From the NCBI GenBank assembly GCA_963667765.2, contig CAXXON010000001.1:1151722-1215721 (forward strand): a DNA stretch of 64,000 bases. The letters run 5' to 3'. The DNA is from Dehalococcoidia bacterium (GTDB lineage: Bacteria; Chloroflexota; Dehalococcoidia; Lucifugimonadales; UBA3495). A model generated the notes under the pieces. It worked only from the letters and a program-made list of their open reading frames with translations, was not told where the DNA came from and made no database searches. Shown in pieces: positions 5,304 through 24,217 of this stretch. Made by a program: the position numbers and the translations under genes. Every line of letters begins with the position of its first letter. The first letter of the stretch is position 1.

Positions 5304-5555
5304 ATGATGTCAAGGGTAAGACAGCTTATGACCAACCGGCTCATCAACAGGAACACCAAGACGATCACCTTCTCCCTGCCGCCTGACATGGCAGAGCAGG
5401 TGCAGGACGTGATGCGCGACGAGGGTCGCACCATGAGCGAGCTCATCCGGGAGGCCCTTCGCAACTACATGGAGGAGCGGGAGTGGCTTAGGACCATCCG
5501 GTACGAGAGGGTACGCGCTCGCCATGCTGAGCAGGAAGACTCACGAGGAGATTGA
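5304..5555 (+). CDS. ribbon-helix-helix (CopG/Arc-like) protein coupled to LSR rec1
   Basis: KTITFSLPPDMAEQVQDVMRDEGRTMSELIREALRNYMEEREW is a classic RHH beta-strand plus two helices. Paralogs precede every LSR copy in the window. The start may be ATG 5328. Confidence 0.75.
   Translation: MMSRVRQLMTNRLINRNTKTITFSLPPDMAEQVQDVMRDEGRTMSELIREALRNYMEEREWLRTIRYERVRARHAEQEDSRGD
5316..5323 (+). promoter_or_regulatory. GTAAGACA core of the motif shared by all four RHH-LSR modules (partial copy)
   Basis: GGGTAAGACAGCTTATGA. The same GTAAGACA core followed by a TAT-rich hexamer is seen at 8970-8981, 21580-21591 and 54149-54160. Here it lies inside or at the start of the RHH ORF, so its role is unclear. 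Confidence 0.25.
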
Positions 5556-5566
5556 AGGAGGACAAA

Positions 5567-7231
5567 ATGAAGCAACAGTTCCAACCCCTGACCCCGGCGG
5601 CCCTCTACGCCCGGGTGTCCAGCGACCGCCAGGACGTGGACCTTTCCGTGGCTGCCCAGCTTAGAGCACTGCGAGACTACGCCAAGAGCAACGGCTACTC
5701 CGTGGTCCGCGAGTACGTGGACGAGGCCGAGAGCGGCCGCATCGCCGACCGGCCCCAGTTCCGCCAGATGATCGACGAGGGCGGCAAGGCCACGGCTCCG
5801 TTTGAGGTGATTCTTGTCTGGAAATTCAGCAGATTCACCCGCAAGCGGGAACACGCTGTCGCTTTCAAGTCCATGCTCCGGCGCAAGGGCATCCGGGTCG
5901 TCTCCATTACCGAGCACGCCGACGACTCCCCCACCGGCAAGCTGATGGAGGCCATCATCGAGTCGGTGGACGAGTTCTACTCGGAAAATCTTGGCGAAGA
6001 AGTAAAGCGGGGAATGCGGGAGGCCGCCTCTCGCGGCTATTTCCTTGCCTCCAAGGCCCCCTTCGGCTACAACCGCATCAAGGTCAGCGACGGAGTGAAG
6101 GACCGTCCCACCCTGGAAATCGACCCGGCGGCCGCGCCAATAGTCAAGGAGATATTCGAGAGTTCCCGTCGGGGCAACGGGCTCGCCGAAATCTGCAAGG
6201 AACTGAACGGCCAGGGCATCACCAACCGGGGCAAGCGCTGGCAGAAGAACGTGGTCCACTACCTGCTCACCAACGAAGCATACACAGGGACGGCAGTGTG
6301 GGGCGTCAAGAGCAAGGACGAGAAGAACCCGGACCCGGTTCGGGTGGAGAACGCCTGGCCCGCCCTGGTGTCAAGGGAGTTGTTTGACGAGGTGCAGCAG
6401 GGACTCCACCAGCGGGCGCCCACGGTGCAACGGCCCGGACGGGTGGGCAGCCAGTACTTGCTGAGCGGACTGCTCCGCTGCGGGGTGTGCGGCAAGCCCT
6501 ACTCGGCCCAGGGGGCCAAGAGCGGCCGATTCGCCTACTACGTCTGCGCCAGCCTGTTCCGCGAGGGAGCGGGAGCGTGCAGCAACGGGCGATACCTGAA
6601 CGCAACCAAGGTTGAGGACCTGGTAATCGAGAAGGTCAGGGAGCGGATTCTCACCGAGGAGACCATCACCGAGCTGGTGACACTGGTGGCCGAGGAGATC
6701 GACAACCTGGCCGGGGAGGTCAACGGGAGGCTGACCGCAATCAACAGCGAGCTGTCCGACGTGGAGACCCGGTTGGAGAACCTCTACCAGGCCCTGGAGA
6801 CCAAGCAGTTGCCCATCGAGGTGATCTCGCCCCGCATCCTGTCCCTGAAGAGCCGCCAGGACCAGCTTGTGGCGGCGCGGGAGGGGGCCGAGGCCCAGTT
6901 GGAGCAGCGTCGGGCCGAACTGCCCACGTCGAAGGAGATCAAGGGGTACGTGGCGGACTTCCGGGAGTTGTTCCAGGAAGGGACGTTCCCGGAGCGGAAG
7001 GCCCTCATCCGCAACTTCGTGCAGGGCATCGAGGTCGTGGCAGACGAAGCGGTTCTGACGTACACTATCCCCATGCCCCAGGATGGTGTAACGTCGGAAG
7101 CGGCCTCAGTTCTTGATTTTGTCCAGTCAGGCCCACCAGACTTGACGGTAGACAGTACCGGGGCGTCCAGGTATACCTCCTCGGCGTCTTTTCCCCCTAT
7201 TGGACTATCTTGGGGCGTAGGTATTGTGTAA
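5567..7231 (+). CDS. large serine recombinase (rec1)
   Basis: Resolvase catalytic N-terminus AALYARVSSDRQDVDLSVAAQLRAL, then a recombinase domain, a Cys-rich zinc ribbon (CGVCGKPYS...YYVCAS...GAC) and a coiled coil. ATG 5567 is preferred because AAGGAGG lies 6 nt upstream. The last ~25 codons are the antisense image of rec2. Confidence 0.9.
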   Translation: MKQQFQPLTPAALYARVSSDRQDVDLSVAAQLRALRDYAKSNGYSVVREYVDEAESGRIADRPQFRQMIDEGGKATAPFEVILVWKFSRFTRKREHAVAFKSMLRRKGIRVVSITEHADDSPTGKLMEAIIESVDEFYSENLGEEVKRGMREAASRGYFLASKAPFGYNRIKVSDGVKDRPTLEIDPAAAPIVKEIFESSRRGNGLAEICKELNGQGITNRGKRWQKNVVHYLLTNEAYTGTAVWGVKSKDEKNPDPVRVENAWPALVSRELFDEVQQGLHQRAPTVQRPGRVGSQYLLSGLLRCGVCGKPYSAQGAKSGRFAYYVCASLFREGAGACSNGRYLNATKVEDLVIEKVRERILTEETITELVTLVAEEIDNLAGEVNGRLTAINSELSDVETRLENLYQALETKQLPIEVISPRILSLKSRQDQLVAAREGAEAQLEQRRAELPTSKEIKGYVADFRELFQEGTFPERKALIRNFVQGIEVVADEAVLTYTIPMPQDGVTSEAASVLDFVQSGPPDLTVDSTGASRYTSSASFPPIGLSWGVGIV

Positions 7232-8715
7232 CGCACCAGAGCTCCTCCGGGCTGCACCACGATTTCCTTGACGAAAGACTCGATGAAGCCCCGCCGCTCG
7301 GTGAGTTCGCTCTCGTTCAGAAACTTGCTCAGGTCCTCACAATAAGCGGTGATGGTTTCCACATCGTCCAAGACGACCCGCCGCTGGGACAGTATCACCC
7401 TGGCCTCCGCCGCCGTGGCCTCAAGACACTCCTGTCGCTCCCGGTGGTCCTTGATGCGGGGCTTGAAGTCCTCGATGTCCAGGTCGGTGGTCTCCGCCAA
7501 GTTGTAGAGGCGCTCCAGCCGCCGCTTCACGTCAGCCAGTTCCGACTCGGCGGTCTCCAGCCGCTGGCGCTGCTCCCGGGCGATGCCGTCCATCTCCTCG
7601 TCCACCAGCTTGACAAGCTCCCGTATGTTGGACTCGGTGAGCACATTCTCCCGGATCTTGCCGACGACCATCTCCTCAAACCTGCGGGCGTTCAGTCTGG
7701 GACAGTCGCAAGCCCCGCTTCCCCGTTTCATCAATGACTGGCAGACGTAGTAGGCGAACTTGCCTCCCTTGGAGTCCTGGCCGGACATGGCCCGGCGGCA
7801 GGCGCGGCACTTGACCAGCCCGCTGAGCAGGTAGGAGCTGCCAACCCGGCGGGGATGGACCTTCCTGGGGGCGCGGGAACTCATCTGCTTGTTGACCTTG
7901 CGGAACTGCGTCTGGGTGACTACACCGGGGAACGCCTTCTCCACCCTGACCGGGTCGCCCTTGTCCCTCGCGCCTCCGCCCCAGAGCAAAGTGCCGGTGT
8001 AGGCCTCGTTTCTGAGGATGATATGGACGCCGTTCTTGGACCAGGGCCTGCCGGTGGGGTTGGCGATGCCCTCGCCGTTCAGGGTGCGGGTGATCTCCAG
8101 GATGCCTTTCCCCGACTCCGCCAGGTTGAAGATGCGCTGGACCACGGGAGCGGTGTCCGGGTCCGGTTCCAGGGTGGGCCGCTTTTTTCCCCCGTCCTGG
8201 ACCATCAGCTTGCGGTAGCCGTAAGGGACCCGGCTGGCGACCCAGAAGCCCCTTGAGGCGGCCTCGCGCATACCACGCCGAACTTCTTCGGCAAGATTTT
8301 CCGAGTAAAATTCGTCCACGGACTCTATGATGGCCTCCATCAGCTTGCCGGTGGGTGAGTCGTCGGCGTGCTCGGTGATGGAGACGACGCGGATTCCCTT
8401 GCGCCGGAGCATGGACTTGAAAGCCACGGCGTGCTCCCGCTTGCGGGTGAATCTGGAAAACTTCCAGACCAGAATTTCGCCAAAAGGCGATTCCGGCTTG
8501 CTGGCCTCGTCCAGCATCCTGCGGAACTGGGGCCGGTCGGCGATTCTACCGCTCTCGGCCTCGTCGACGTACTCGCGGGCGATGGAGTAGCCGTTGCGCT
8601 CGGCGTAGTCGCGCAGCGCCCGCAGCTGGGCGGCGACTGAGAGGTCCACGTCCTGGCGGTCGCTGGAGACCCGGGCGTAGAGAGCCGCCGGGGTCAACTC
8701 GGTATTCTTACTCAT
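6784..8715 (-). CDS. large serine recombinase (rec2); native C-terminus replaced by read-through antisense to rec1
   Basis: MSKNTELTPAALYARVSSDRQDVDLSVAAQLRAL plus recombinase, zinc-ribbon and coiled-coil regions. Family similarity ends at ...VLSTVKSGGPD (about 7125). The remaining ~113 codons down to 6784 run antisense through rec1. Confidence 0.85.
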   Translation of the reverse strand: MSKNTELTPAALYARVSSDRQDVDLSVAAQLRALRDYAERNGYSIAREYVDEAESGRIADRPQFRRMLDEASKPESPFGEILVWKFSRFTRKREHAVAFKSMLRRKGIRVVSITEHADDSPTGKLMEAIIESVDEFYSENLAEEVRRGMREAASRGFWVASRVPYGYRKLMVQDGGKKRPTLEPDPDTAPVVQRIFNLAESGKGILEITRTLNGEGIANPTGRPWSKNGVHIILRNEAYTGTLLWGGGARDKGDPVRVEKAFPGVVTQTQFRKVNKQMSSRAPRKVHPRRVGSSYLLSGLVKCRACRRAMSGQDSKGGKFAYYVCQSLMKRGSGACDCPRLNARRFEEMVVGKIRENVLTESNIRELVKLVDEEMDGIAREQRQRLETAESELADVKRRLERLYNLAETTDLDIEDFKPRIKDHRERQECLEATAAEARVILSQRRVVLDDVETITAYCEDLSKFLNESELTERRGFIESFVKEIVVQPGGALVRYTIPTPQDSPIGGKDAEEVYLDAPVLSTVKSGGPDWTKSRTEAASDVTPSWGMGIVYVRTASSATTSMPCTKLRMRAFRSGNVPSWNNSRKSATYPLISFDVGSSARRCSNWASAPSRAATSWSWRLFRDRMRGEITSMGNCLVSRAW

Positions 8716-8917
8716 TGCTGTGTCCTCCCTGATTATCTTCCCGTTCAGCTTGTCGGGGGCGCAGCGGTTCCAACCTTGCCTAGCGGCACAGTCCCCCGTC
8801 CTCCATGTATAGGCGCAGAGCCTCGGTCACCAACTCGCTCATGTCGCGGCCCTCTTCCTCCTTCGACCGCTGCACCTCCTCGAACATCTCCGGCGGAAGC
8901 GAAAAGGTAATAGTCAC
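8708..8917 (-). pseudogene. decayed RHH gene upstream of rec2
   Basis: Own translation: (GTG 8917)TITFSLPPEMFEEVQRSKEEEGRDMSELVTEALRLYMEDGGLCR, then an in-frame TAG (8780-8782), then ARLEPLRPRQAEREDNQGGHSNE*. The TAG aligns with a Gln codon of the intact copy at 53887-54117. The conserved upstream ATG (8928-8930) is out of frame by 1 nt. Confidence 0.7.
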
Positions 8918-8969
8918 AGATTACCAGCATGGCGGTATGGTCTCTCGTCTTGATTACTAGTATATTAGA

Positions 8970-8981
8970 TTGTCTTACTAT
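8970..8981 (-). promoter_or_regulatory. conserved TTGTCTTACTAT (rc ATAGTAAGACAA) operator/promoter motif of the RHH-LSR module
   Basis: On the gene strand: GTATAGTAAGACAATCTAATAT. The motif sits just upstream of a -10-like TAATAT. An identical 12-mer occurs at 21580-21591 and 54149-54160. Confidence 0.4.
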
Positions 8982-9872
8982 ACATCATCCCATCTCCAGC
9001 TTGCCCGGTCAACGCGGTGCGGTCACCACACCTTCCCCAGAACCGCCTCCAGAGGCCGCGCCGACCCTGCGCCGCCTTCAATTCGTCTACCAACACGGCA
9101 TTGTGCGCCGTTCCTGATCGAGTTGCTCTTGCACCAAGGCCACCAGATACGGTAGGTTTCATTTAGCCTTGTAGTCAGTGGTGCGCCGCGCCTCCGACGT
9201 AATCAGCGCCCAGACCTGCCGGTAAAGGACTGGGTTGGTGAGCCCCTGTCGGCAGGGCAGGGGTATTTGCATTAGCTCTGAGAATACCCTCTGCGGCCTG
9301 AACCGCCGTGCATTGGGTCATCTTCTATGAGGTTTGCGACCCTCAGGGGCCGGCTAGGGCTAATCAGTCCTGATCCTATATTCGTCGATGCGCTGGCGAC
9401 ATTTGGAGGACTGGTCCTTGACTGTGCGGTCATTGACAGTCCTGTAAAATGTTATGCCAATCGAGTGATTGGTCCAGCTGAGTGCTGGTATAACTAAAGA
9501 TTACTCTCACGTTCTACGGCAGGTTTTACATTGCCTACCGGGGAAGGGAATTCACGAGCGCGCCACGGTTGACTTAGCCCGGTCGATGAGCGCTTTCGCA
9601 CAAAACTGCAGCAAGTACTTGCGCCAAATATGGCTTAATCGCTACTCTGTCCTCAGAACACTTCCAGGGTAATCTCACCTGCCTCAATACTGCCTGAGCA
9701 AGGGAACGATTCTCGTATTTTGACTCGGTTGAGTGACCCCATCAAGGCGAACGGCCGCGGCACGGCCCATGGCGATGTTACCTCTACGAGGAAGGTGCCT
9801 TTTGTGGCGGCAATGTGTTGTGGCTTCCCCGGCTGATCCTCTGTAACTATTGGGAACGAAGTGGAGGAAAGG

Positions 9873-10676
9873 ATGAGCACCTTTGAAGAAGGATTCGACG
9901 CGACTGAAAGAGCTGTGGACTCGGTGTTACAGGCATTGGGCGATGTTTCCAAGCTGGCGCGCCAATTACAACGAGACGCGCGGGCGGGCAACATCGCAGC
10001 TATCAGGAGAGGGACCGCCAGGCTGGAGGAAAGCCTGAGCCTGATTCGTCAACAGATCGGCAACGCAACCCAAGCCTGGCCCTTCGCCCCGGAGGAAGAA
10101 CTGGCATACTTGGAAGGCCAATACGCCAGCGAATTGCAGGGAGAAGCCAAAAGGAAGGGACTTCAACTGTTTGAGAGGGACGGCAGGTTGATTGCTCACC
10201 CTTCAGTCCTCCGGGTCTTGCCTGGGGAGCGAGCAGTGCGGATTGACCGGCGCCAAAGTTCATCCATCAGACCGACGAAAATAATGGCAGACCTGGCGAA
10301 GCTGCAAAATACGCCACCTCGTTCCAATCCGCAACAGTTTTTGCAATCCCTTTACGATGCCTACATAGAGTTGAGCGACCGCAGCACGGCCGACCAATTG
10401 AAGTTGGGCCAGCTAGGCCAGTTGGTCCGGCTGGACCGCATCTACAGCTTGTGGACAGGTCGCCCGGGAACTCGAGGAGATTACAGCCAGTTGGACTTCG
10501 CCCGGGACCTGTACAGCCTGGAAAACAGCGGTGTTAATGAAGTTCGTTCAGGAGCTCGGGTGTCCTTCCCGTCATCCACGGGCACCAGGAATCCCAGGGG
10601 AACCATATCCTTCGTAGGACCAAACGGCGAAGCGGTGCTCTACTACGGGATCCAATTCAGTGGAGTCAGCCGATGA
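9873..10676 (+). CDS. hypothetical protein A of the SNF2/BrxD-like operon
   Basis: ORF 9861..10676. ATG 9873 is preceded by GGAGGAAAGG. No motif recognised. N-terminal half is helical; C-terminal half is Gly/Ser/Arg-rich. The stop overlaps the next start (ATGA). Confidence 0.6.
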   Translation: MSTFEEGFDATERAVDSVLQALGDVSKLARQLQRDARAGNIAAIRRGTARLEESLSLIRQQIGNATQAWPFAPEEELAYLEGQYASELQGEAKRKGLQLFERDGRLIAHPSVLRVLPGERAVRIDRRQSSSIRPTKIMADLAKLQNTPPRSNPQQFLQSLYDAYIELSDRSTADQLKLGQLGQLVRLDRIYSLWTGRPGTRGDYSQLDFARDLYSLENSGVNEVRSGARVSFPSSTGTRNPRGTISFVGPNGEAVLYYGIQFSGVSR

Positions 10677-11653
10677 CCAGCACGATTTGTGTCCAGGAAT
10701 GGCTGGAGGTAATCAAGGACGAGTATTTGGATGGATTCGTAAGGGATGGTGGCTCGTCCATCAAGTTTCTCGTACCGGTCAAGGAAGCCCTAGCGCCGTT
10801 GGTAAAGAGCCGTCTTGATGATATTGGTTCCAGCTTGGACTACCTAGTGGTCTGCGTGGATTCGGGAGGTACCCGGGTCCATATGCCCCAGGAGATTTTC
10901 TTCCGCATCGCCCAGCAAGTCGATTGGCGACTTATGGCCCGCAGGGTAATTCTGAGGCTGTGCGAAGACTTGCCCTATCAAACCAATACCATAGACCCTG
11001 TCGCCGATACCCCGATTCTTGGGGCTATCAGTGCGGCAAACGATGTGGAAGAAAGCCAGGTAGCTCTAGACCTGCGCCGCAGGATGCCTAGGGCTGTCAC
11101 TCAAAACCGAGAGATGTCTCGCGATTTCAGACTGGCGATGACCCATCTGTGTCTTGCGGAAATGGACGGAGACGCGGAGAGCCAACAAGGGGAGGAATTG
11201 ATTGAATGGTTAACCGGGCGCAATAGAAGGGTGTCCAACGTCCGGCGATACTCCATTTACAACAGCATCGTCCGTACCAATGCCCGCCATTTCCTGGAAT
11301 CCCTCTTTAACTGGGTGAAGTTCGTTGGATATGCAGGAACACTGATCTTGCTGGACAATAGTCGAGTGACCCTGCGGCGGAATCCGAGAGATGGCCTGTT
11401 CTTTTATTCCCGCCCGGCGACCATGGACCACTATGAACTGATGCGGGAACTCATTGACAGTACGGACCGGTTGGAAGGCGTTCTCATGGTGGTGCTGGCC
11501 GATGAAGACTTCCTGGACCAGGAATTGCGCGGAAAAGGATTCTTTATCTATCAAGCACTCTACGCAAGAATCAGCGATGAAGTCCAGGACCGGAACCAGG
11601 CCAATCCCTTTTCTACTCTGGTCCGGTTGGCGGACACTACTGTCCAGGAGTGA
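10673..11653 (+). CDS. degenerate P-loop NTPase-like protein B (inactive paralog of gene C?)
   Basis: It has DGGSSIKFLVP where a Walker A would sit and AGTLILLDNS where a Walker B would sit. Both flanking genes overlap by 4 nt. Confidence 0.5.
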   Translation: MTSTICVQEWLEVIKDEYLDGFVRDGGSSIKFLVPVKEALAPLVKSRLDDIGSSLDYLVVCVDSGGTRVHMPQEIFFRIAQQVDWRLMARRVILRLCEDLPYQTNTIDPVADTPILGAISAANDVEESQVALDLRRRMPRAVTQNREMSRDFRLAMTHLCLAEMDGDAESQQGEELIEWLTGRNRRVSNVRRYSIYNSIVRTNARHFLESLFNWVKFVGYAGTLILLDNSRVTLRRNPRDGLFFYSRPATMDHYELMRELIDSTDRLEGVLMVVLADEDFLDQELRGKGFFIYQALYARISDEVQDRNQANPFSTLVRLADTTVQE

Positions 11654-12999
11654 TCGGAATGGGAATCGGGGCAACAGAAACATCCTCCAGGTTAGCGAAC
11701 CGCCGCGCTCTGGAAGCCCTGAGAAACGGGGTGCCCAATGGCGACGCAGTGGCGGTCTTGGGATGCAACCAACCTTCCGTTGAGCGTGAGTTCAACTCCA
11801 TGCTCGCCCGCGTTTCCGGCGAATCCGGTAAGGCAGACGCCGGCTTGGGGATGCTGGTTGCAGGGGAGTTTGGCGCTGGCAAGTCTCACTTGCTAAGTTA
11901 CCTGGAAACCCAAGCCCTGCAACGGAACTTCGTCTGCAGCCGGGTGGTCATCAGCAAGGAAACGCCACTGTTCGACGTGGAAAAGGTTTTCAAAGCCGCC
12001 GTAGCCAACGGCAGGGTCCCCGGGATTACCGGCCACATGGTGGAGGAAATTGCCCAGACGCTAGAATACAACTCCCAAAGCTACGCCGATTTTTCCGTGT
12101 GGGCTAACCGGGAGGACAACGGCCTGCATCGCATTCTGCCGGCAACCCTGTTGATTCATGAAAAGGAAACCGACCCCGAGCTACTGAATGAAATCAATTG
12201 GTTCTGGGCCGGTGAGAAGATTCAGCTTAAGAGCGTCCGAGACGGGCTGACTCATATCGGCGAACGCCAAGCCTATTCCTTCCGGGCGCCGATAGCAAGG
12301 AACATGCCCCCGCAAAAGTTGCGGTTCCTCTTGGAACTAATCAAAGCTGCCGGTTACCGCGGTTGGGTTATACTCATGGACGAAATTGAGTTGATCGCCA
12401 ATTACAGCGTTCTCCAGCGCGCCCGGTCCTATGGGGAGTTGACCCGTTGGCTGGGTCAGGCGACCGACGAAAAATACCCGGGCCTGGTAGTCGTTGGAAC
12501 CGTCACCGCCGGTCTTGCCGAATTGGTTCTCGATACCAAGGAAGACCGGGACAAGGCAGCCCCTCGCCTGCGGGCTAGGGGAAGAGACACCGACAATTTG
12601 ATTGCGGCGCGGGCAGAAACCGGGATGCGCCTCATTGAACGAGGGATTCTCCCGCTGGATGATCCTGACGACGCGACCCTTTCCGTCCTGTATGACAAGC
12701 TAAAGGATATTCATTCCCAGGCATACAGCTGGGACGCACCGGACATTGACCGCAGAATCGCTCAGACGAGACGGCCCAGAATCCGCTCCTTCGTCCGGCG
12801 ATGGATTAACGAGTGGGACCTCCGCCGCCTGTATCCTGAATTGGAACCAGACATTGAGGTGACGGAAGTGAAGTTCAGGTACGAGGAAGATACCGCGCTG
12901 GAACACCCTGCTTCGGACGATCCGGGCTCCGCCACCATCAATGAGGCGGACGTATCTGTCCATGGGCCTGAATCCCATCCCGTCCATCGCCAGGATTAA
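11650..12999 (+). CDS. P-loop ATPase, DUF2791/BrxD-like
   Basis: Walker A GEFGAGKSHLLSYLE and Walker B-like GWVILMDEIE. The N-terminal ALEALRNGVPNGDAVAVLG segment and the size (~449 aa) fit what I recall of BrxD-type ATPases. The family call needs an HMM check. Confidence 0.6.
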   Translation: MIGMGIGATETSSRLANRRALEALRNGVPNGDAVAVLGCNQPSVEREFNSMLARVSGESGKADAGLGMLVAGEFGAGKSHLLSYLETQALQRNFVCSRVVISKETPLFDVEKVFKAAVANGRVPGITGHMVEEIAQTLEYNSQSYADFSVWANREDNGLHRILPATLLIHEKETDPELLNEINWFWAGEKIQLKSVRDGLTHIGERQAYSFRAPIARNMPPQKLRFLLELIKAAGYRGWVILMDEIELIANYSVLQRARSYGELTRWLGQATDEKYPGLVVVGTVTAGLAELVLDTKEDRDKAAPRLRARGRDTDNLIAARAETGMRLIERGILPLDDPDDATLSVLYDKLKDIHSQAYSWDAPDIDRRIAQTRRPRIRSFVRRWINEWDLRRLYPELEPDIEVTEVKFRYEEDTALEHPASDDPGSATINEADVSVHGPESHPVHRQD

Positions 13000-13010
13000 G
13001 GACTGCTGCG

Positions 13011-13550
13011 TTGCCCATACCGTTCCGTGACCTGGGCGAGGACGAACCCTCCGGCGTAGCCGGTTTCCTGCGTTTCATTGACGAACCGGATGGAAGGGGA
13101 ATACGCGGCGCTTTATTCATCATGTCGGCTCGCGGAGAACCGATTGAGTTCACTTTCACCAGGATCAACCTTCGCTCCGGAGTTCTGTGGCGGCCGGGAC
13201 ACGCCCGGAGTCGTTCCATATCCGCCTTGACCAAGGCATTGTTTGAGTCAGCCAGCAACCAGGCCTACGTAGTATTTTCGCTGGCGGAGGAAACGCCTCC
13301 AGCGGTATTTTCCGATAACATACGCCCGGAAATCCCCCTGTGCCGCGTGGCATCCAAAGACTCCACGGCTGTGGTCCCATCGGAAAAAGCACAACGATTA
13401 TCCGAGTCCTTAATCCTGTATTGGACTAACGGCTTGCCCCATCCCGGTTCAGTGACAGCCCAGACCATGGAACTCCTTGGGCAGCGCCAACTGCTGATTG
13501 AACCCTTTGAGCGCGCCGCCTTGGGAATTCAGGAGGCGTTCGACTCGTGA
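13011..13550 (+). CDS. hypothetical protein D of the operon (179 aa)
   Basis: TTG start 11 nt after the gene C stop. The stop overlaps the gene E start (GTGA). No recognisable motif. Confidence 0.5.
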   Translation: MPIPFRDLGEDEPSGVAGFLRFIDEPDGRGIRGALFIMSARGEPIEFTFTRINLRSGVLWRPGHARSRSISALTKALFESASNQAYVVFSLAEETPPAVFSDNIRPEIPLCRVASKDSTAVVPSEKAQRLSESLILYWTNGLPHPGSVTAQTMELLGQRQLLIEPFERAALGIQEAFDS

Positions 13551-15340
13551 AGCTGCTGCCAAACTGGCTGACCGGCGCTCCGACGTCGCACCGGCGAGAA
13601 TGGACTCCGTTGCGACGTCAATTGCGGCCGCAGCCAGTTCGCACTGCCCCGCTGCCCCCGATCCAGCAGCCGAGCGCGCGGCATACGCCATGTAGCATTG
13701 ATTTGCCAACTGACGTGGTTTCCCTTTTCCCCGAGGCGGAAGCCGTCCCGGAGACAGTTACATCGGTAGTTCTGGCTCCGGCGGCGGGTGCCCAGGGAGA
13801 TATGCCATCCGGTTCCGGCCCGCGAAGCCGCTCCGAGTCTGCCAACGTCAATAATCCTCCAGCCACAAGCCCACGAACTAGCATATCCCTTGCCTCCCGT
13901 CTGCGGCTGGTTCTCTCACCTTCTCTCAACTCGTTGCTGCCCGGTCCACATTCGGTCTTGTCCTGGGCCGGTGAGTTAATGCCGTTCCAACTGGACGGAG
14001 TCCGAACGCTGATCAGCAGTGACAAGTTGCTGCTGGCCGATGATATGGGGTTAGGTAAGACCATCCAGGTAATCGCGGCGTTGAGGATTCTGATGGTGAT
14101 GCGGGTTTTAGAGACTGCGCTGGTAGTTGCTCCCGCGTCGGTCTTAGACCAATGGCGACAGGAATTGCTCAAGTGGGCACCGGAGCTTAGGGTGATGGTC
14201 ATTCGGGGCGGTCCCGGTGACCGGGCCTGGCAATGGATAAGCGAAGTACATGTCGGGATAGTCAGCTACGACACGCTTAGGGCGGATTTCACCGACAATT
14301 TACAGTCTCCGGTACGAAAGAAGACCTGGGGCGTCCTGGTTGCGGACGAAGCCCAGCGTATCAAGAACCGCAACCCTACCAGCGTTGCCGTAAAGGAACT
14401 GAAGCGTAACCGCTCATGGGCGCTGACGGGCACCCCGCTGGAGAACAATGAAGAAGAGCTGGCGTCCATCATAGAGTTTGTGGACCGCGGGGAACTGACT
14501 TCTCAAGGCCACTACTCCCCCGGTCTCAATCTGCGGGAGAGACATCGTGAATTGCAAATGAGGCGGAAGAAGGCCGATGTGCTTGAAGACCTTCCGCCCA
14601 AGCTGACCACCAAGCTGTCCATCGAACTGCTGCCCAACCAGCGGCGCAGCTATGACCGGGCGGAACGGGAAGGAATCGTATATCTGAGGGAGTTAGGGGC
14701 CGATGTAAGGGTGCAGCACGTTTTGGAGCTGATCCAGCGGCTGAAACAGATTTGCAACGCCGAGCCGGAAACCAGAGAGTCCAGCAAGTTTGAAGATATT
14801 CGGCGAAGAATGGAGTCCCTGTCCCTACAGGGTCACAGGGCCATAGTTTTTTCTCAGTACGTCAGCAACGGGTTTGGTGTTGACGCCATGGCGGGTGTAT
14901 TGCGCGAGTTCGACCCTTTGACATTCACCGGGGAGCTTTCGCCGGAGGACAGGCGAGAGGTCCTACGTCGTTTTCGAAATGGCGACCGGCACAAGGTGCT
15001 GATCGTTTCACTAAGGGCCGGCGGGGTGGGCCTTAACCTCCAGGAAGCCTCCTACGTATTTCACGTTGACCGTTGGTGGAACCCGGCGGTGGAGCGCCAG
15101 GCCGAAGACCGCAGCCATCGTTATGGGCAGTCGCTGCCGGTTCACGTGTTCAAGTATTCCTGCATAGACACGATAGAGGAGCGCATTGACAGGATATTGG
15201 AAAGCAAGCAGGAATTGTTTGACGAACTCGTCGACGATGTAACCATCGACCTAGGTAAGTCTCTGTGTGCTGATGAACTGTTTGGCCTGTTCGGGTTGGA
15301 AGATTTCTGCCAATATCGTGGTAGTCAGGCCGCGTCATAA
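13547..15340 (+). CDS. SNF2-family (SWI2/SNF2) helicase/translocase
   Basis: Motif I LLADDMGLGKTIQ, motif II LVADEAQRIKN, motif III ALTGTPLENN, and C-terminal helicase motifs LRAGGVGLNLQEAS and RWWNPAVERQAEDRSHRYGQ. The first ~130 aa are P/S/R-rich low complexity, so the true start could be downstream. Confidence 0.85.
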   Translation: MKLLPNWLTGAPTSHRREWTPLRRQLRPQPVRTAPLPPIQQPSARHTPCSIDLPTDVVSLFPEAEAVPETVTSVVLAPAAGAQGDMPSGSGPRSRSESANVNNPPATSPRTSISLASRLRLVLSPSLNSLLPGPHSVLSWAGELMPFQLDGVRTLISSDKLLLADDMGLGKTIQVIAALRILMVMRVLETALVVAPASVLDQWRQELLKWAPELRVMVIRGGPGDRAWQWISEVHVGIVSYDTLRADFTDNLQSPVRKKTWGVLVADEAQRIKNRNPTSVAVKELKRNRSWALTGTPLENNEEELASIIEFVDRGELTSQGHYSPGLNLRERHRELQMRRKKADVLEDLPPKLTTKLSIELLPNQRRSYDRAEREGIVYLRELGADVRVQHVLELIQRLKQICNAEPETRESSKFEDIRRRMESLSLQGHRAIVFSQYVSNGFGVDAMAGVLREFDPLTFTGELSPEDRREVLRRFRNGDRHKVLIVSLRAGGVGLNLQEASYVFHVDRWWNPAVERQAEDRSHRYGQSLPVHVFKYSCIDTIEERIDRILESKQELFDELVDDVTIDLGKSLCADELFGLFGLEDFCQYRGSQAAS

Positions 15341-15580
15341 GCCCGAATCCACCGAAAGGCTGGCATTTGGGTTCTTGCATGAGAGATTAGTGGGAGTGGA
15401 GGGTCAATGATTCCGCTCATCCGCCGACGGATAGGGCCAATGGTGGCTCGGAGTGGGCCTGGGGAATCCAGGCTGTGGGACGACGGTCAGCAGAGGACCC
15501 TCGCTGGCCTGGTCGCCGCGAGTGGGGAGAGATCTTCAAATGTTTGGTGGGAGAAACAGTTTCCTTCGGTGGGGATGGCG

Positions 15581-15785
15581 TCAAGCGAGCAGTGGAATGG
15601 CCCGCAGCCGTGCCAGAGCAGAGACAAACCCGGTTTCCCAAGGCCAGCGCCGGGGGTAGGTGCAGGGTGAGTTGGCGGGCCTCGCGGGTGATCCTTCCAG
15701 CTAGGGAAAGAAAGCGTCTGCGAAGGGTCTTGATGGTCGCCACCGTCTCTCCCAAAGCGATGCGCTGGGTCCAGCGGGCCAGCAA
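15581..15785 (-). pseudogene. frameshifted C-terminal fragment of a DDE transposase (IS1380/IS4-like)
   Basis: ETVATIKTLRRRFLSLAGRITREARQLTLHLPP, then after a 1-nt frame change WPWETGFVSALARLRAIPLLA*. This is the characteristic 'RLTLHLP..WPW' transposase tail. Confidence 0.55.
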
Positions 15786-15858
15786 CTGTCTTTGAAGTCA
15801 AGAAGGACGGACAATTTCAGCTGGGTACGAACTGCACCATGGAGCCTCATTCTTGACC

Positions 15859-16008
15859 ATGGCGTTTAGGCTGCTGGCGTCCGGCAAGCCAAAGAAGCTG
15901 GCGTTGGTCGCGTGCATGCCCAAACTGCTGGTCATATTCAACTCCATGCTCAAAAACGGCTCCCCTTGGCGCGACATGACTCAGCTGGAAATCGGTCACT
16001 CCTCTTGA
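15859..16008 (+). pseudogene. C-terminal fragment of an IS110-family transposase
   Basis: Own translation MAFRLLASGKPKKLALVACMPKLLVIFNSMLKNGSPWRDM... matches the conserved IS110 tail (GKPKKVALVACMRKLL..LN.ML). No catalytic N-terminal part is present. Confidence 0.6.
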
Positions 16009-16120
16009 CATTCAAGACAGTTGCTTGGGTGCTCCTTGTTTCTGATCGGTTTTCTCTCTCGAAAACCATTATCCCAGATGCAAAGGAGCACTTTCTTACC
16101 CCTCCACCTCCTCGCAAGAC

Positions 16121-16430
16121 TCATCTCTTCGGTGGATTGGAGTTTAGCCGCGACAGCTGTCGCTGGAGATTCAGCAGCCGTCTTTCGTCCCGGCCCTCGC
16201 TCAGTTCGTGGACCAGGCCGGCGATGAGGTTCTCTCGGCGCTGGACATTTTCGCAGTGGGCCAACTCGATGATCAGTGCCTTGTTCACCGAAGGGATGGC
16301 TGGGAAGTCGAAGGTGTCCATATTCTTTACCGCAGGGAATCGGGAGGCGCGGACCCGCCGCTCCACCATGCGCTGTTGCGGTCGATGAGTTCCAGTTCGG
16401 CGAGGCGAAGTTGACCTCGCCCTGCGGGAA
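16121..16430 (-). pseudogene. IstB-like remnant with internal deletion
   Basis: RFPAVKNMDTFDFPAIPSVNKALIIELAHCENVQRRENLIA is fused directly to LVHELSEGRDERRLLNLQRQLSRL. The Walker A segment that normally lies between them is missing. Confidence 0.55.
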
Positions 16431-16671
16431 GAAACGGGGAAATACGTGCCTCGGAATGTTGCAGCCCCTCTGGTTCAGAATTTATGATAGAGACTATCAA
16501 AATATAAAATCACTTGGATGGATGATCCAGCAACAGGATTCCCGACAGTAGTTCGCTGACCCACCCGGCCTAATCATTCGAACAGATTTGCGGCACAGCT
16601 TTCTCCGGCGGCCCACAGACCAAGGAGTCAAATCTGGGTAGTGCAGTATTTCTAATTTTCGAGGTGGCGAT

Positions 16672-16872
16672 ATGAGAATCTACTATCGCGGCTACGTCAT
16701 CATTGAGGAATACCCGAGGGAGGAGTGCGCGGTGCAGGGGAGGCGGCCGGAACGGGAGACACTGTCCCACGAGGGCAGCCCCCGGGCTGCGATGCGCTGG
16801 GTCGACCACGACATCATCCGGCAGCGGGTGGCAGCCGCCGGCTGGCTCAACCCCCGGCCGGTGTCGGCATAG
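16672..16872 (+). CDS. small hypothetical protein (66 aa)
   Basis: ATG preceded by GAGGTGG. A strong hairpin follows at 16944-16973. No homolog recognised. Confidence 0.3.
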   Translation: MRIYYRGYVIIEEYPREECAVQGRRPERETLSHEGSPRAAMRWVDHDIIRQRVAAAGWLNPRPVSA

Positions 16873-16943
16873 CAGCGCCAAAGGCAATGCAATGCTTCAC
16901 CGCCGACGACGGTGCTAATGAGAAAATCGAGGGGGACAAACAG

Positions 16944-16973
16944 GAATCGGCCTCGAATTATCGAGGCCGATTC
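16944..16973 (+). terminator. 13-bp perfect stem hairpin (GAATCGGCCTCGA-ATTA-TCGAGGCCGATTC)
   Basis: Read directly from the sequence. There is no clear U-tract after it (TACACAC), so it may be a terminator or an RNA-stability hairpin. Confidence 0.45.
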
Positions 16974-17375
16974 TACACACAAGAATGGTGAGACATGAGC
17001 CATACTCTATCGCCGGGGACGCTGCGCTGGTTGGGGGTTTCCTATCCCGGGTCAGGCCCGCTTACCGTCAGGCGCCGCTCGGCAGGATAGAACAGTCAGA
17101 GGGAAATGGCAGGGCGCATGGCCCGGTGCCGGTCAGCATTGCCGCCAAGCTGAGTCACCTGGGCAAAGGGCCTCATGCCGGACCGCGGTGGAAACGACAT
17201 TGGCCTGGCCCCGTTCCACAGTGCCTTGGCGGGCCCGGCGGTTGCCAGCAGCACTACAGCCGTAGATTTAGGGAAGGTCGAATTGAGTTAGTCAACGGAG
17301 GAGGTGAGCCAGCGACGGGTGCAGTTTATGAGATCGTGGGAGTGTCCAGGTGGGCCGGAGCGGTATTGAGGTAGC

Positions 17376-18608
17376 ATGAGTGCAACGCAGAACGCCTCAG
17401 AAGGTGGAAGCCCCGCCAGCGATTATTTGACTCTCAGGAGAAACTTGCCAGCCACGTGGCGCGCAGGAAGAGTGGACAAGTCCCAAATGGCCGTGAAAAT
17501 CGCCGATGAGTCTGAAGGCATTGCTATCAACAAGCACTGCGGGAGTGCCAGGCTGCCTGCCCTGGCGTTGCTATGCTTCGCAACCCTCTGGTTCCTGGCC
17601 TCCTGTGGAGGCGAACAGCCCGCGCCGCTGGCGGATACGCCGATTCCAGGGGTACCGACGGAAACCCCGTCCCCGGCGCCAACGACACCAGTGAACCCGT
17701 CTCCCACCCCTGTGCCGACGCCGACTACGGGACCTCCGCCTGCCGCCACGGAGGTTGCGACGCTTGCTGCTACCGTAGAGTCCGATGTCAAGATGGACAG
17801 AGATGACAACACCAAGGTAGCAGTCCAGCAGCTTTTCGATACTTGGAAACGGGCGCTCCGAGAAGATGACGCTGCCCTTTTCCATTCGCTCTTGACGCGG
17901 GAGTTGGCCGGAAGCTGCGGGTTGGACGAGTTGCGTTCGTGGCTGGAACAGGACGCGGAGTTCCTCTCGGAACCTGTGGTGAACGCCGTGTTTCTGGACG
18001 TGACCGACCCCACCCGGGCCTATGCTGAAATCGCCGCCGGGCAACCCGCCGGGCAGCCACAGGAGTCCATATCCTTTCCGTGGCCTGTGGCGCTGGAAGA
18101 AGGAGAATGGCGGGCAGGATTCCATGTCGCCGGATTCACCGCCAATAGATGCCCGTTCGTCGTATCGAGTCCATCCTCGGGACCGGACGGCAGCGAGCCC
18201 GAATTCCCACAAATCCCCGGCCTTGATTTGAAACGAAGAGAGGCTATTCTTGCCGCAGTGCCTGGAACCAGGGTCCTACACAGCAACTACAGGACAGATA
18301 GTTTCGGCTCCAGCTTCAGCACCGGCGGCTCCATGTCGCCCTACGACAACAATGTCAACATTTACGCCGAAGTGGAGACAGAGTCAGATGCCGCCGAGCT
18401 GGTAAGCCTCTACCGCGACGGCCTGAATCATCCAAATTGGGATAATGTCGCCGACGGTTCTTCGGGCGACTTTGGCTGGTTCTCATGGACCGTCCTTGAT
18501 GACGAGGGGCGGTTGTGGCACGGGAGGCTGGTGGTGGTGCCGTCGCACGAGGGTTGGAAGCAGGTGTGGTTATCGGTATTTTCCGATGATGCGGACGACA
18601 GCCGGTGA
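17376..18608 (+). CDS. lipoprotein with Pro/Thr-rich linker, function unknown
   Basis: Lipobox LWFLASCGG followed by PAPLADTPIPGVPTETPSPAPTTPVNPSPTPVPTPTTGPPPA. The start is probably the internal Met at 17487. Confidence 0.6.
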   Translation: MSATQNASEGGSPASDYLTLRRNLPATWRAGRVDKSQMAVKIADESEGIAINKHCGSARLPALALLCFATLWFLASCGGEQPAPLADTPIPGVPTETPSPAPTTPVNPSPTPVPTPTTGPPPAATEVATLAATVESDVKMDRDDNTKVAVQQLFDTWKRALREDDAALFHSLLTRELAGSCGLDELRSWLEQDAEFLSEPVVNAVFLDVTDPTRAYAEIAAGQPAGQPQESISFPWPVALEEGEWRAGFHVAGFTANRCPFVVSSPSSGPDGSEPEFPQIPGLDLKRREAILAAVPGTRVLHSNYRTDSFGSSFSTGGSMSPYDNNVNIYAEVETESDAAELVSLYRDGLNHPNWDNVADGSSGDFGWFSWTVLDDEGRLWHGRLVVVPSHEGWKQVWLSVFSDDADDSR

Positions 18609-18792
18609 AGAGTGTTCCCGGCTGCCCTGGGAACAGTAAATACGATTGCCCATAGGGGAGACCAGTCCGCAATCGGTCCTCGCCCCTCCCCGTCCTCCGG
18701 CTCTCGGTGCAATACGACAATATAGGATGAACTTCATTGCATGACCGGAGGTTGCAGCGACGTTAATTTCTTGACGCAGTCAGAGGTTCAAG

Positions 18793-20106
18793 ATGGCGGA
18801 GAAAAAGAGTTTCCGAGTCGCTCCAATCGTTCTGCTTATAGCGGCACTTAGCATGCTGTCCGTAGTCCTCGCTTGCGGCCCGACTCAGACCGCCCCGGCG
18901 CCGACCGACGTTGAAGAGCCCACACTCACGCCATCATCCACGCCCGACCCAACGTCGCCTGGCGTACCAGAGACCGCGCCAACGCCGGCTGATCCCGAAG
19001 AACCCACACTGACGGCCGCCCCGACGCCGACCGTGGCTGAGAGACCCACGCCGACGGCAGCCCCTGGGCCAGGGTTCAAGAGGGTGGAACTCGACCCGGA
19101 TTACTGGCCGTCCGGCGCCATCGGCGATGAGTACGTCGCCACCGGCCCTGACGGCGAGGTGTATCTGCTGAACATCATCACCGGGGAGCGGCGCCAGCTG
19201 ACCGATGACGGACACCCGAAGAGATGGCCCGTCATATCCGGGAATTACGTGGCCTGGACCGATCAGCGCAGGCAGATTGAGATACCTGACCGCAACTCGG
19301 TTCGCCCTGCCTTGACCTTTGCCGACGACATATTCGTGCTGGACTTGACCACTGGGGAACAGCGGCGAATTACCGAGGTCCCCGCCAACCGCTACGGCTT
19401 GGGTATTTCCGGCCACCGGCTGGCATGGTCGGACACGAGAAATGAGCTGGAAGAGGAGTATTACGATTTCGACGTGTACGCCTACGACCTTGAAACAGAC
19501 CAGGAAATACCCGTCGCCGTCCGGCGGGGTTCGCAGCGAAGTCCGGTGATCTATGGCGACACCGTGGTGTGGGCGGACAACCGGAACAATCCCTTGCTGG
19601 ATGCGCCTGATTCGGACGAGATGCATTTCGGCTGCGGCGATTGCCCTGAGAACCGTTTCGACATCTACGCCTACGATTTCAGCACCGGCGAGGAGAAGCC
19701 ACTAGTTCAGACGGGGTACTACAACCTGTATGCCATAGTTCACGGCGACAACCTGATATGGAAGTCCTATCACCCGGAACAACCCTTGGTCGTGAAACTG
19801 CTGAACCTGGTCACCGGGGAAGAGCAGGTAATCATCGACGACCACCACGTTGGCTATCTTTCCCTTTCAGATAGTTACCTGGTCTGGACGGTGGGCTTTC
19901 CTTGCGACGTAGTCACCAAAGAGGGACAGCCGCTTGGCACGGGCGCGTTTGCCCGCAGCCTGGAGACAGGCGAGGTGTGGCAGTTGTCGGACTATGTGGA
20001 GCCTGTCGCCAGGGTCTTCGGCAAGACGGCAATTATTGCCGAGGGCTGCCACTGGTTTCCCAATAGCGGGCTGCGAAGGGACCTGTACGCTGTCTTGCTT
20101 GATTGA
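18793..20106 (+). CDS. lipoprotein with repeated beta-propeller-like blades
   Basis: Lipobox SVVLACGP, a PT-rich linker, then 5-6 repeats of the type ISGNYVAWTDQR / ISGHRLAWSDTRN / IYGDTVVWADNRN / VHGDNLIWKS / LSDSYLVWTV. Confidence 0.6.
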   Translation: MAEKKSFRVAPIVLLIAALSMLSVVLACGPTQTAPAPTDVEEPTLTPSSTPDPTSPGVPETAPTPADPEEPTLTAAPTPTVAERPTPTAAPGPGFKRVELDPDYWPSGAIGDEYVATGPDGEVYLLNIITGERRQLTDDGHPKRWPVISGNYVAWTDQRRQIEIPDRNSVRPALTFADDIFVLDLTTGEQRRITEVPANRYGLGISGHRLAWSDTRNELEEEYYDFDVYAYDLETDQEIPVAVRRGSQRSPVIYGDTVVWADNRNNPLLDAPDSDEMHFGCGDCPENRFDIYAYDFSTGEEKPLVQTGYYNLYAIVHGDNLIWKSYHPEQPLVVKLLNLVTGEEQVIIDDHHVGYLSLSDSYLVWTVGFPCDVVTKEGQPLGTGAFARSLETGEVWQLSDYVEPVARVFGKTAIIAEGCHWFPNSGLRRDLYAVLLD

Positions 20107-20558
20107 AGAACGAAACGGCACTGTTAGCAGAGCGCGGGCTGTTGAAGTAGGGATTCAGTATCACAACCGCAGAGAGATCTCAGAATTGAGGATGCCTCCC
20201 AGAGATGAGGTTTGGTTCTGTTTGCGGCGAATCATAGAATTGCGGAAGCCGGACGGTTCCGGGATCGGGAACTTGTGTCGGCTTTAGAGCATCGGTTGTA
20301 TTGTAGGAAAGGCACTCTCAGGGTGTGATTGATGTGTGCTCGGAGTGGCCTCCTGGCTACGAAGGACTCCAGCTATGCGGATGTGGCACACGCCGGCGAT
20401 GTCCCGGGCCGCAGCGACGGCAATCTTCAACGAAATGCCCATCCTCAGAGACCCAGATGGTCGCGGGTATCCCTGCCCCCATCGTTCGATTCTCGCCGCT
20501 GGCCGTGGGAGGTTGGTAACGCGGCGTGGCCCATCCAGCGTACTCGGAGGTGAGACCT

Positions 20559-20831
20559 ATGGTGTTTATTATTGCGTTGGTCATCCTGGTCGGTTTCGCG
20601 GTGGCGCTATGGCTCCTTTTTGGTGGAAGGAACTCCCGGCGGAGGGCGACAGGACATGACTCTATGGAATTGCGCCGTGCGGAGAACAAGGTCAAGGTGT
20701 CGGACCCGATTCTGCGAGTGGACATCGACATCTTGGAGCGTTATGGTTCCGGTCTGTTGGATGACGCGATAACCTTGCGCCGAGCACAAATACAGCGGGG
20801 CGACAGCCCAGAAAGTCCAGGCCCACGTTAA
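20559..20831 (+). CDS. small single-pass membrane protein (paralog of 24964-25236)
   Basis: GGAGGTGAG RBS then ATGGTG. MVFIIALVILVGFAVALWLLFGG... then ELRRAENKVKVSDPILRVDIDILERYGSGLLDDAITLRRAQ. About 65% of residues look identical to the 24964 copy by eye. Confidence 0.55.
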   Translation: MVFIIALVILVGFAVALWLLFGGRNSRRRATGHDSMELRRAENKVKVSDPILRVDIDILERYGSGLLDDAITLRRAQIQRGDSPESPGPR

Positions 20832-21049
20832 GTGAAAGCGCCTCTATGATTTGTCATCTGCGACTGGCCTGGAAAGTTGTTCGGTGTCTCGTCGCGACTG
20901 AAGTCGTCATCGTTGGCGTGAGGAGGTCAAACGGCATCCGTGAGAATGAGTTATGGCTATTGCCGTCGGCAGAGGAAACTAAGGCAACAGTAGCGGCTGA
21001 GTGTGACGAATACCCCGACGCCAATTGGCCTTGTTCGGTTGTGAACTCT

Positions 21050-21322
21050 TCAGCGACCTGGCGCTCCTCGCAATCGAGAGGTTGACCTTGAAGTGAGCGG
21101 TGGCTTTGCCCACTCGTCGATCATCCGGCGGAACTGGGGACGGTCGGCGATACGGCCGCTCTCGGCCTCGTCCACGTACTCGCGGGCAACGGAGTAGCCG
21201 TTGCGTTCGGCGTAGTCGCGCAGCGCCCGCAATTGGGCGTGTACGGACAGGTCAACGTCCTGGCGGTCGCTGGAGACCCGGGCGTAGAGGGCCGCCGGTG
21301 TCAAATCAGCATTCCTATTCAT
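21050..21322 (-). pseudogene. truncated large serine recombinase (rec4; N-terminal ~68 codons only)
   Basis: MNRNADLTPAALYARVSSDRQDVDLSVHAQLRALRDYAERNGYSVAREYVDEAESGRIADRPQFRRMIDE, then unrelated sequence and a stop. Confidence 0.8.
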
Positions 21323-21545
21323 CGCTGTGTCCTCCGTCTTCCTCTGACTGATGGGCCTGGCGGGAACGCCGCTGCATCCGCTCCTTGATCCGCCACTCCC
21401 GCTCCTCCATGTATAGGCGGATGACCTCCCTCAGCAACGCGCTCACGCTGCGGTTCTCCTCCCCCGCCACCTGCCGCAGGCCCTGGGCCATCTCCGGGTG
21501 CAGCGAGAAGGTGATGGTCTCGGTGTTCCTGGATAATATGGGGGC
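21315..21545 (-). pseudogene. RHH gene of the truncated rec4 module; no canonical start codon found
   Basis: Own translation ...TETITFSLHPEMAQGLRQVAGEENRSVSALLREVIRLYMEEREWRIKERMQRRSRQAHQSEEDGGHSDE*. The stop overlaps the rec4 ATG. The frame opens right after a TAG, with no ATG/GTG/TTG before the beta-strand. Confidence 0.5.
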
Positions 21546-21579
21546 TATGAGCGCACCTTGTGTGGACTATTATAACACT

Positions 21580-21591
21580 TTGTCTTACTAT
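21580..21591 (-). promoter_or_regulatory. conserved TTGTCTTACTAT motif (RHH-LSR promoter/operator)
   Basis: On the gene strand: CATATAGTAAGACAAAGTGTTATAAT. The motif lies immediately upstream of a consensus TATAAT. Confidence 0.4.
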
Positions 21592-24074: not shown

Positions 24075-24217
24075 TGTCCGGTAGAACCTGGTCGAACATA
24101 AGGCCTTGCAAGGGATTACATTCGGGCGAGTTTTGTGGTATTGGGCGAGCCACGCAACGACGGCTGGGGAACACGGGATGGCGGTGGTGTCGCACGGAGC
24201 ACTGGTTGATAAGCGGT

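Follow-up and report, generated by a model that had tools for sequence, protein, structure and literature searches.

A probable integration junction between two convergent large serine recombinase genes in a Dehalococcoidia genome, and the tRNA 3' ends targeted by their relatives

Why should two large serine recombinase genes run into each other tail to tail exactly at an imperfect palindrome, each ending in the antisense of the other? This question is raised by rec1 and rec2, two genes in a 64,000-nucleotide stretch of a Dehalococcoidia bacterium genome (assembly GCA_963667765.2, contig CAXXON010000001.1, positions 1,151,722 to 1,215,721 of the forward strand; hereafter the window). An initial annotation, made from the sequence alone, had taken the palindrome for an attachment (att) site contained within the ends of the recombinase coding sequences, and had proposed that elements of this family insert into resident relatives in the opposite orientation and thereby build arrays. 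Our analysis suggests that window positions 7121-7146 are very likely an attL/attR-type junction left by a rec2-bearing element that integrated into the last codons of rec1.

Both recombinase genes are present and convergent as first annotated (Table 1). Together with a third relative, rec3, they match the Pfam profiles Resolvase PF00239, Recombinase PF07508 and Zn_ribbon_recom PF13408 above the cut-offs, and the motif YARVSSDRQ is found in rec1 and rec2, which share 57% identity across 556 residues. Among NCBIfam families CcrB matches best (E = 1e-38 to 1e-48), but the scores of 131-166 bits against a family cut-off of 900 bits place the proteins outside the CcrA, CcrB and CcrC equivalogs. 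A tblastn search of the window with rec1 and rec2 returned two more relatives, i.e. rec3 and an N-terminal remnant. The open reading frames (ORFs) of rec1 and rec2 overlap by 448 nt: bases 7139-7231 of the rec1 tail are antisense rec2, and bases 6784-7132 of rec2 are a 113-codon read-through of antisense rec1 (643 minus 530 codons). The family-like portions of both come together at 7121-7146, which reads GTCCAGTCAGG-CCCA-CCAGACTTGAC, with arms matched at 9/11 positions around CCCA. The same bases encode VQSGPPDLT in rec1 and, on the opposite strand, VKSGGPDWT in rec2, and the tails beyond mirror each other. The palindrome, the peptides, the mirror tails and the 113-codon extension are thus all as the initial annotation described them. 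The complete 26-mer GTCCAGTCAGGCCCACCAGACTTGAC is present in a single copy in the window, with no occurrence expected by chance at up to 3 mismatches.

Table 1. Positions of recombinase genes, att-related segments and mobility genes in the window
Feature	Position	Strand	Details
rec1, large serine recombinase	5552..7231	+	559 aa; C-terminus ...VLDFVQSGPP; family-conserved to 7138
rec2, large serine recombinase	6784..8715	-	643 aa; C-terminus ...VLSTVKSGGP; family-conserved to 7133
rec3, third large serine recombinase	52260..53963	-	62% identical to rec2; full-length
rec2-type integrase remnant	21104..21334	-	first ~77 codons only; 81-88% identical to rec1 and rec2
rec1 arm (P1)	7109..7128	+	GTTCTTGATTTTGTCCAGTC; P1 + core resembles a tRNA 3' end
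Shared 10-bp core	7129..7138	+	AGGCCCACCA; symmetry centre
rec2 arm (P2), left terminal inverted repeat of insert	7139..7159	-	GGTACTGTCTACCGTCAAGTC; plus strand reads GACTTGACGGTAGACAGTACC
Inserted DNA, ~45 kb	about 7135..52312	.	rec2 at left edge, reading outwards
Right terminal inverted repeat of insert (P2')	52287..52307	+	GGTACTGCCTACCGTCAAGTC; 20/21 vs 7139-7159
Second core copy	52308..52317	+	AGGCCCACCA; direct orientation; inferred crossover CC 52312-52313
Replic_Relax protein	22017-24074		in the insert (E2b)
Replic_Relax protein	60995-62632		rec3 element
TrwB/TraG-like coupling protein	62635-63957		rec3 element

The 26-bp palindrome appears to be a hybrid att junction, composed of the rec1 arm, the shared core and the rec2 arm, and not a native site. 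Native sites have arms of ~20-22 nt, as in the attP rebuilt below from the insert ends and in a natural site in locus L085. The proposal that the palindrome is an att site is supported, although the 26-bp form is not the native one. Arms of the P1 type are also seen isolated beside tRNA (transfer RNA) CCA ends in other loci. We place the crossover dinucleotide at CC 7133-7134 (the last GG of TGGTGG on the other strand) because both the symmetry centre of the palindrome and the conservation boundary at TGGT-GG point to it. The conserved parts of rec1-type and rec2-type genes overlap in CCACCA; the CC at 7133-7134 corresponds to tRNA positions 71-72 and is followed by the discriminator A and then CCA.

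The right-hand counterpart of this junction lies about 45 kb away. Two copies of the 18-nt sequence GTCMAGTCAGGCCCACCA, at 7121-7138 and at 52300-52317, form a direct repeat (17/18 matched; 0.13 matches expected by chance and at least two found in 1/100 shuffles), and a 21-nt inverted repeat pairs 7139-7159 (-) with 52287-52307 (+) (20/21 matched; none expected by chance). Further core copies are absent from the rest of the window; on their outer sides, the rec1 and rec3 elements extend beyond it. Linked repeats without a further core give the intervening 45 kb the anatomy of an inserted element; and since the two cores are in direct orientation, recombination between them would produce excision or deletion, not inversion. 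On the plus strand the rec3 end reads GGTACTGCCTACCGTCAAGTC-AGGCCCACCA-CCATGTCC, and rec3 crosses the second core into the right end of the insert, which gives it the tail ...GGGPDLTVGSTVFEMWMGL before its stop.

Joining the insert ends in silico yields CGGTACTGCCTACCGTCAAGTC-AGGCCCACCA-GACTTGACGGTAGACAGTACCG, a 54-bp site (attP) with 22-nt arms matched at 21/22 positions; the circular junction expected from it is …GGTACTGCCTACCGTCAAGTCAGGCCCACCAGACTTGACGGTAGACAGTACC…. On this rebuilt attP, rec2 would end in ...VLSTVKSGGPDLTVGSTVFEMWMGL and stop at about 546 residues, the native stop context being …GGPDLTVGSTVFEMWMGL. A natural counterpart of the rebuilt site follows a rec2-type gene in L085, where the arms are matched at 18/22 positions, and 'FEMW'-like tails are also present in other rec2 homologs. 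Joining the flanks, in turn, lets rec1 continue as ...VQSGPP-PCPILRTP... and converge on rec3 (DNA …GTCCAGTCAGGCCCACCACCATGTCC…; empty-site form …GATTTTGTCCAGTCAGGCCCACCACCATGTCCAATACTG…). The tail PCPILRTP occurs in homolog P0138, the near-identical PYPILRTP in P0141, and matching rec1/rec3 junction DNA in locus L002.

We then compared these genes with their relatives. Each of the best 120 rec2 homologs in the database retains ...VLSTVKSGG; right after it the tails diverge. Many of these tails (GGAEGIRTPD..., GGPGWTRTNDLGLIRTAL, GGPCGGRTHDTRIKSPVL...) are translated antisense tRNA genes, while ~45 of the 120 homologs have exactly 643 residues with an antisense-rec1 tail, which makes this the commonest length. 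The 120 rec1 homologs behave similarly: all but a few keep ...VLDFVQSGPP (GGC CCA CCA) and then diverge into antisense rec2- or rec3-type genes, host DNA (loci L083 and L084) or an inverted copy of their own arm. The last group, with tails of the form xW[IT]K[ST]RTF..., marks an intact palindromic site. The divergence of homolog tails at the core, together with the insert repeats, bears out the initial view that an att site is embedded in the recombinase coding ends.

A scan of species-representative genomes, examined with ARAGORN and tblastn, gave 80 loci, all from Dehalococcoidia assemblies, and the target counts rest on the 70 loci that have TGGTGG at a fixed position of the gene. Beyond TGGTGG, which is the complement of CC-A-CCA (acceptor positions 71-72, discriminator base and CCA end), 33 loci have an antisense tRNA gene (Ile, Val, Ala, Met, Lys or Leu), 25 a convergent rec1-type gene, two a convergent rec2-type gene and 10 other sequence. 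Column information stays at 2.0 bits as far as the end of TGGTGG and drops beyond it. The proposed accretion of one recombinase gene onto another, with the rec2 element lying in the opposite orientation within the last codons of a resident rec1, is thus supported, and the arrangement recurs at 25/70 loci, but it is not specific, tRNA CCA ends being the commonest target (33/70). The tRNA link comes from the homolog tails and the related loci; the window itself was found to contain no tRNA gene and no transfer-messenger RNA (tmRNA) gene.

Near-identical recombinases sit at different targets. The integrases of L017 (at tRNA-Met) and L055 (at tRNA-Lys) are 100% identical over 528 residues, and other pairs show 97% identity between tRNA-Lys and tRNA-Val, and 96.6% between tRNA-Lys and a rec1-type gene end. 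This suggests that the rec1 end is one of several accepted targets and not a dedicated one. It would be accepted through its likeness to a tRNA 3' end: compared with the final 18 nt of the targeted tRNAs, the rec1 18-mer agrees at 10-16 of 18 positions, and tRNA-Ile comes closest. The inner 12 nt, read outward from the crossover, are near-identical in the rec1 arm (GCCTGACTGGAC), tRNA-Ile (GCCTGGATGGAC) and the far arm of the element itself (GCCTGACTTGAC); further out, the three arms differ. A clear rule for the outer (zinc-ribbon-type) half-site motifs was not found in these arms; the inner 12 nt alone are clearly shared. Two rec2-type genes (L007 and L009; 90% identical to rec2) read into fragments of the tRNA-Ile 3' half instead of complete genes, possibly remnants of insertions that took place earlier at the same tRNA.

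The rec1-type site has the rec2-type core in the opposite orientation relative to the gene. Rec1-type elements are therefore predicted to lie downstream of tRNA genes and co-oriented with them, with rec1 at the far end, and two results support this. In L024, tRNA-Lys and an isolated rec1-type arm flank a 4.9-kb rec2-type element, and past that arm the backbone is homologous to window 28-565 and 3157-3479. Moreover, a metagenome scan for a rec1-type arm beside TGGTGG and a T-loop motif gave five matches, and all five are complete tRNA genes (Ala-GGC, Ala-TGC and Glu-CTC) with the CCA end abutting the arm. No integrase gene was found near these five sites, and no tRNA within reach in the 10-kb flanks of the rec1-type loci L083 and L084. 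Seven loci (L053, L065, L068, L070-L072 and L077) carry rec2-like genes (~70% identity) whose core is reversed (…GTCAAGTCMGGCCCACCA…), like that of rec1; core orientation thus seems to have flipped more than once in the family.

The anatomy of the sequence, the spread of targets across loci and the recurrence of the pair are direct observations; the exact position of the crossover, the enzyme at work and the sequence of events are deduced from them. These observations can be combined into a candidate mechanism. The attP of a rec2-type element would lie inside the 3' end of the integrase ORF and consist of two inverted ~21-nt arms around the 10-bp core TGGTGGGCCT, with crossover at the GG/CC in mid-core. 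Integration would exchange the last codons and the stop codon of the integrase gene for whatever lies beyond the target. The usual target would be the 3' terminus of a tRNA gene (…CC-A-CCA), on which the integrase gene would end up converging. Rec1 would represent a sister subfamily with the same core reversed relative to the gene, a reversal that makes its last codons, GTC CAG TCA GGC CCA CCA, read like the 3' end of a tRNA coding strand. A rec1-type element may thus leave a tRNA-like docking site on which rec2-type elements land convergently, and the long overlapping tails would be by-products of the missing stop codons. In the window, the rec2-type enzyme would have acted on a rec1 already in place, and the insert may still be able to excise.

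Several points weigh against this account. Neither recombination nor excision, circular forms or an empty site with the same flanks were observed in this sequence analysis. The predicted tRNA upstream of rec1, co-oriented and with its CCA end followed by GACTGGAYAAAATCAAGAAC, would lie beyond the window, as do the rec1 element's left end and the rec3 element's right end. The far-side half-site of the target is unconserved, being the rec3 3' end in the window and whatever lies downstream at tRNA genes; large serine recombinases normally read both attB half-sites, and such an unconserved half-site is unusual. Some rec1-type tails (…TVDTTIFEMWLG…) break the simple polarity rule. Finally, the insert cannot be one simple element, since it contains a second, truncated integrase gene, and its two terminal repeats may derive from different elements. 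We consider that the insert probably consists of two accreted elements (E2a and E2b) fused by deletion, because the second integrase gene is cut after ~77 codons while the region upstream of it and the Replic_Relax gene, which usually accompany full-length integrase genes, are intact.

The direction of the event could also be reversed, i.e. the rec1 element could be the newcomer that integrated into the attP of a resident rec2 element. The junction is symmetric in that the conserved parts of both genes end in the shared CCACCA, and rec1-type genes have many different tails, so they are mobile too. However, the arm that partners rec2 (P2') is found 45 kb further right, on the side of rec2, and the repeats bracket the rec2 segment instead of the rec1 element. 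In addition, recombinases that are ~97% identical sit at real tRNAs and at rec1 ends, so that insertion of a rec2-type element needs no extra assumption. We therefore regard the reversed order as unlikely.

Even less probable, in our view, is that rec1 and rec2 form one two-recombinase module (like CcrA/CcrB) and that the palindrome is its native terminator or a regulatory hairpin. The recurrence of the pair at 25/70 loci with co-varying sequences, and the fact that 643 residues is the commonest length of rec2 homologs, would fit such a module. Yet rec2-type genes occur without rec1 at 45/70 loci, near-identical enzymes sit at tRNAs instead, and rec1-type genes stand alone beside host genes in L083 and L084. 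The tails, moreover, diverge exactly at the core. A role of the palindrome as a terminator or RNA hairpin was rejected, since a terminator-like site was not found there and the RNA folds no better than shuffled sequence does (z = -0.16). An assembly chimera, or an inversion or fold-back at the palindrome, is hardly credible even though artefacts of assembly and amplification are known to arise at palindromes, because the same junction is found in 25 independent genome assemblies, rec1 and rec2 are too different (57% identity) for a folded-back single gene, and the direct orientation of the two cores predicts deletion in place of inversion.

The favoured explanation, integration of a rec2-bearing element into the end of rec1, has its closest known parallel in DsiB of the Dehalococcoides ssrA islands, a CcrB-like serine recombinase of ~540 residues encoded at the island edge (McMurdie et al. 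2011, PMC3146451). The DsiB ORF crosses attL and takes its stop codon from the RNA gene or the adjacent island, so that C-termini vary; the islands are flanked by a ~20-bp direct repeat of the RNA gene 3' end and form tandem arrays by accretion (PMC3146451). The two systems thus share the bacterial class, an integrase at the edge, an ORF across the att junction, an external stop and tandem arrays. They differ in that DsiB targets a single tmRNA gene at the T-loop, whereas the rec2 family targets many tRNA genes at positions 71-72 and the CCA end. The DsiB system also has a small DsiA partner and a six-gene integration module, and neither was found in the window, where the tblastn search gave only rec1, rec2, rec3 and the remnant, and the small ORFs upstream of rec2 had no Pfam match. 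Convergent integrase pairs and a look-alike of a tRNA end in an integrase gene are found here and are undescribed for DsiB, which we compared by its description. An att site inside an ORF, integrase ORFs across att sites and tandem arrays are therefore not new (DsiB/ssrA islands, PMC3146451); the breadth of tRNA targets for one enzyme, and the use of a sibling's integrase gene as a docking site, are.

The phage-type large serine integrases (e.g. phiC31, Bxb1 and A118/LI) have the same order of Resolvase, Recombinase and zinc-ribbon domains. Their att sites are likewise ~50-bp imperfect inverted repeats around a central dinucleotide, and the inner ~12 nt (GCCTGACTKGAC) are shared here while the outer parts differ, which matches the attP/attB logic that Rutherford and Van Duyne are said to have set out for these enzymes. 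Phage-type enzymes use one cognate attB and an attP outside the ORF; here there are at least six kinds of tRNA plus sibling integrase genes, and the attP would lie inside the ORF. With the CcrA/CcrB/CcrC recombinases of SCCmec the likeness is that CcrB is the best NCBIfam match, far under its cut-off, and the differences are the missing CcrA partner and another target. Staphylococcal cassette chromosome (SCC) elements use the 3' end of a conserved gene as their insertion site, and they accumulate into composite tandem arrays (PMC3146451).

Islands of tyrosine integrases at tRNA genes resemble the present elements in the tRNA 3'-end target, the restoration of the gene end by the element, secondary docking and accretion. 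They depend on another enzyme family and share a tRNA fragment of 20-50 nt with their target, compared with only about 6 bases (CCACCA) here. In the SSV-type archaeal integrases, attP is placed inside the int ORF, and integration alters the integrase gene (PMC7253208); these are tyrosine recombinases whose gene is split into two halves, whereas only the last codons and the stop codon are exchanged here. Serine recombinases at tRNA genes have been described for phiRSM1 (tRNA-Ser) and for AICEs (elements of actinomycetes that are integrative and conjugative) of Mycobacterium (tRNA-Leu) (PMC3218068), and such integration has been regarded as unknown or rare (PMC4383910; as rare by Ghinet et al. 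2011, PMC3218068).

The present family, widespread in Dehalococcoidia, appears to use the near-universal 3' end of tRNAs, with identical enzymes at different tRNAs. To our knowledge, textbook accounts hold that serine integrases do not use tRNA genes. Serine integrases are valued for genome engineering since they need one short site each and no host factors. If our account is true, the family would provide a naturally occurring serine integrase of many targets, with a landing site that is predictable and present in every genome. It would also explain an annotation pattern, namely the hundreds of 643-residue 'recombinase family proteins' in which the final 113 residues come from antisense read-through of an adjacent integrase gene, and it shows how defence cargo (CRISPR-Cas, BREX-like and CBASS genes) builds up in arrays in a poorly studied phylum.

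A broader model can be put forward only tentatively, and we hold it to be somewhat less likely to be right than wrong. One serine integrase might read a generic feature of tRNAs (acceptor end plus T-arm, ...CC-A-CCA) and hence have many tRNA targets, while the integrase gene of a sister lineage might have acquired, in its last codons, a copy of the tRNA end, so that each resident becomes a landing pad. Both lineages would then build defence-island arrays (BREX-like, CRISPR-Cas and CBASS) downstream of tRNA genes, and the exchange of tails might switch between the free and the integrated state.

The initial annotation had also suspected an array of elements, and the window indeed contains at least three, probably four, such elements, in the order E1[rec1→] / [←rec2 … 45 kb …] / [←rec3 E3…]. 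They resemble integrative mobilizable or conjugative elements with a cargo of defence genes. The leftmost, the rec1 element, carries genes for a ribbon-helix-helix (RHH) and a pentapeptide/FRG-domain protein, as well as an IS21 insertion. This IS21-family insertion occupies window 561-3156 (IstA-like rve/Mu transposase at 636-2294 and IstB at 2285-3058) and interrupts the rec1 element; in L003 and L004 the equivalents of window 1-560 and 3157-3478 are contiguous. At the other end of the array, the rec3 element runs rightwards through the second Replic_Relax gene to the gene for the TrwB/TraG-like coupling protein (Table 1). Apart from this gene and the two Replic_Relax genes, no transfer functions were identified. 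A prophage reading was rejected after a PHROG search of ten unannotated window ORFs returned no match.

Within the insert, E2a (to about 21100) comprises rec2, two BrxC/D-like ATPases and an SNF2 helicase. The BrxC/BrxD-like ATPase genes (10673-11653 and 11650-12999) are adjacent to each other, and the gene for the SNF2-family helicase follows at 13547-15340, all near rec2. The region 9861-15340 looks like a defence module; it is missing from the related L004 element, which shares 16142-20133 at 98% identity. E2b (from about 21100) comprises the truncated integrase gene, a Replic_Relax gene and, besides a type I-G-like cas operon, a CRISPR array of 39 repeats. The type I-G/I-U-like CRISPR-Cas locus is complete, with Cas2, a Cas4-Cas1 fusion, Cas3, GSU0054 and GSU0053 (39660-42460 and 42654-51412), and its array has 38 spacers between repeats of the sequence GCTTCAATGGGGCCACCGCCTTTCGGCGATGGAAAG. 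No significant protospacer was found for these spacers in the window and about 80 related loci. A lone CRISPR repeat in inverted orientation lies at 51832-51864, past the far end of the cas operon. On a related element, L085 positions 375-3025 encode a CBASS-like set comprising a patatin and a SMODS/DncV-like nucleotidyltransferase.

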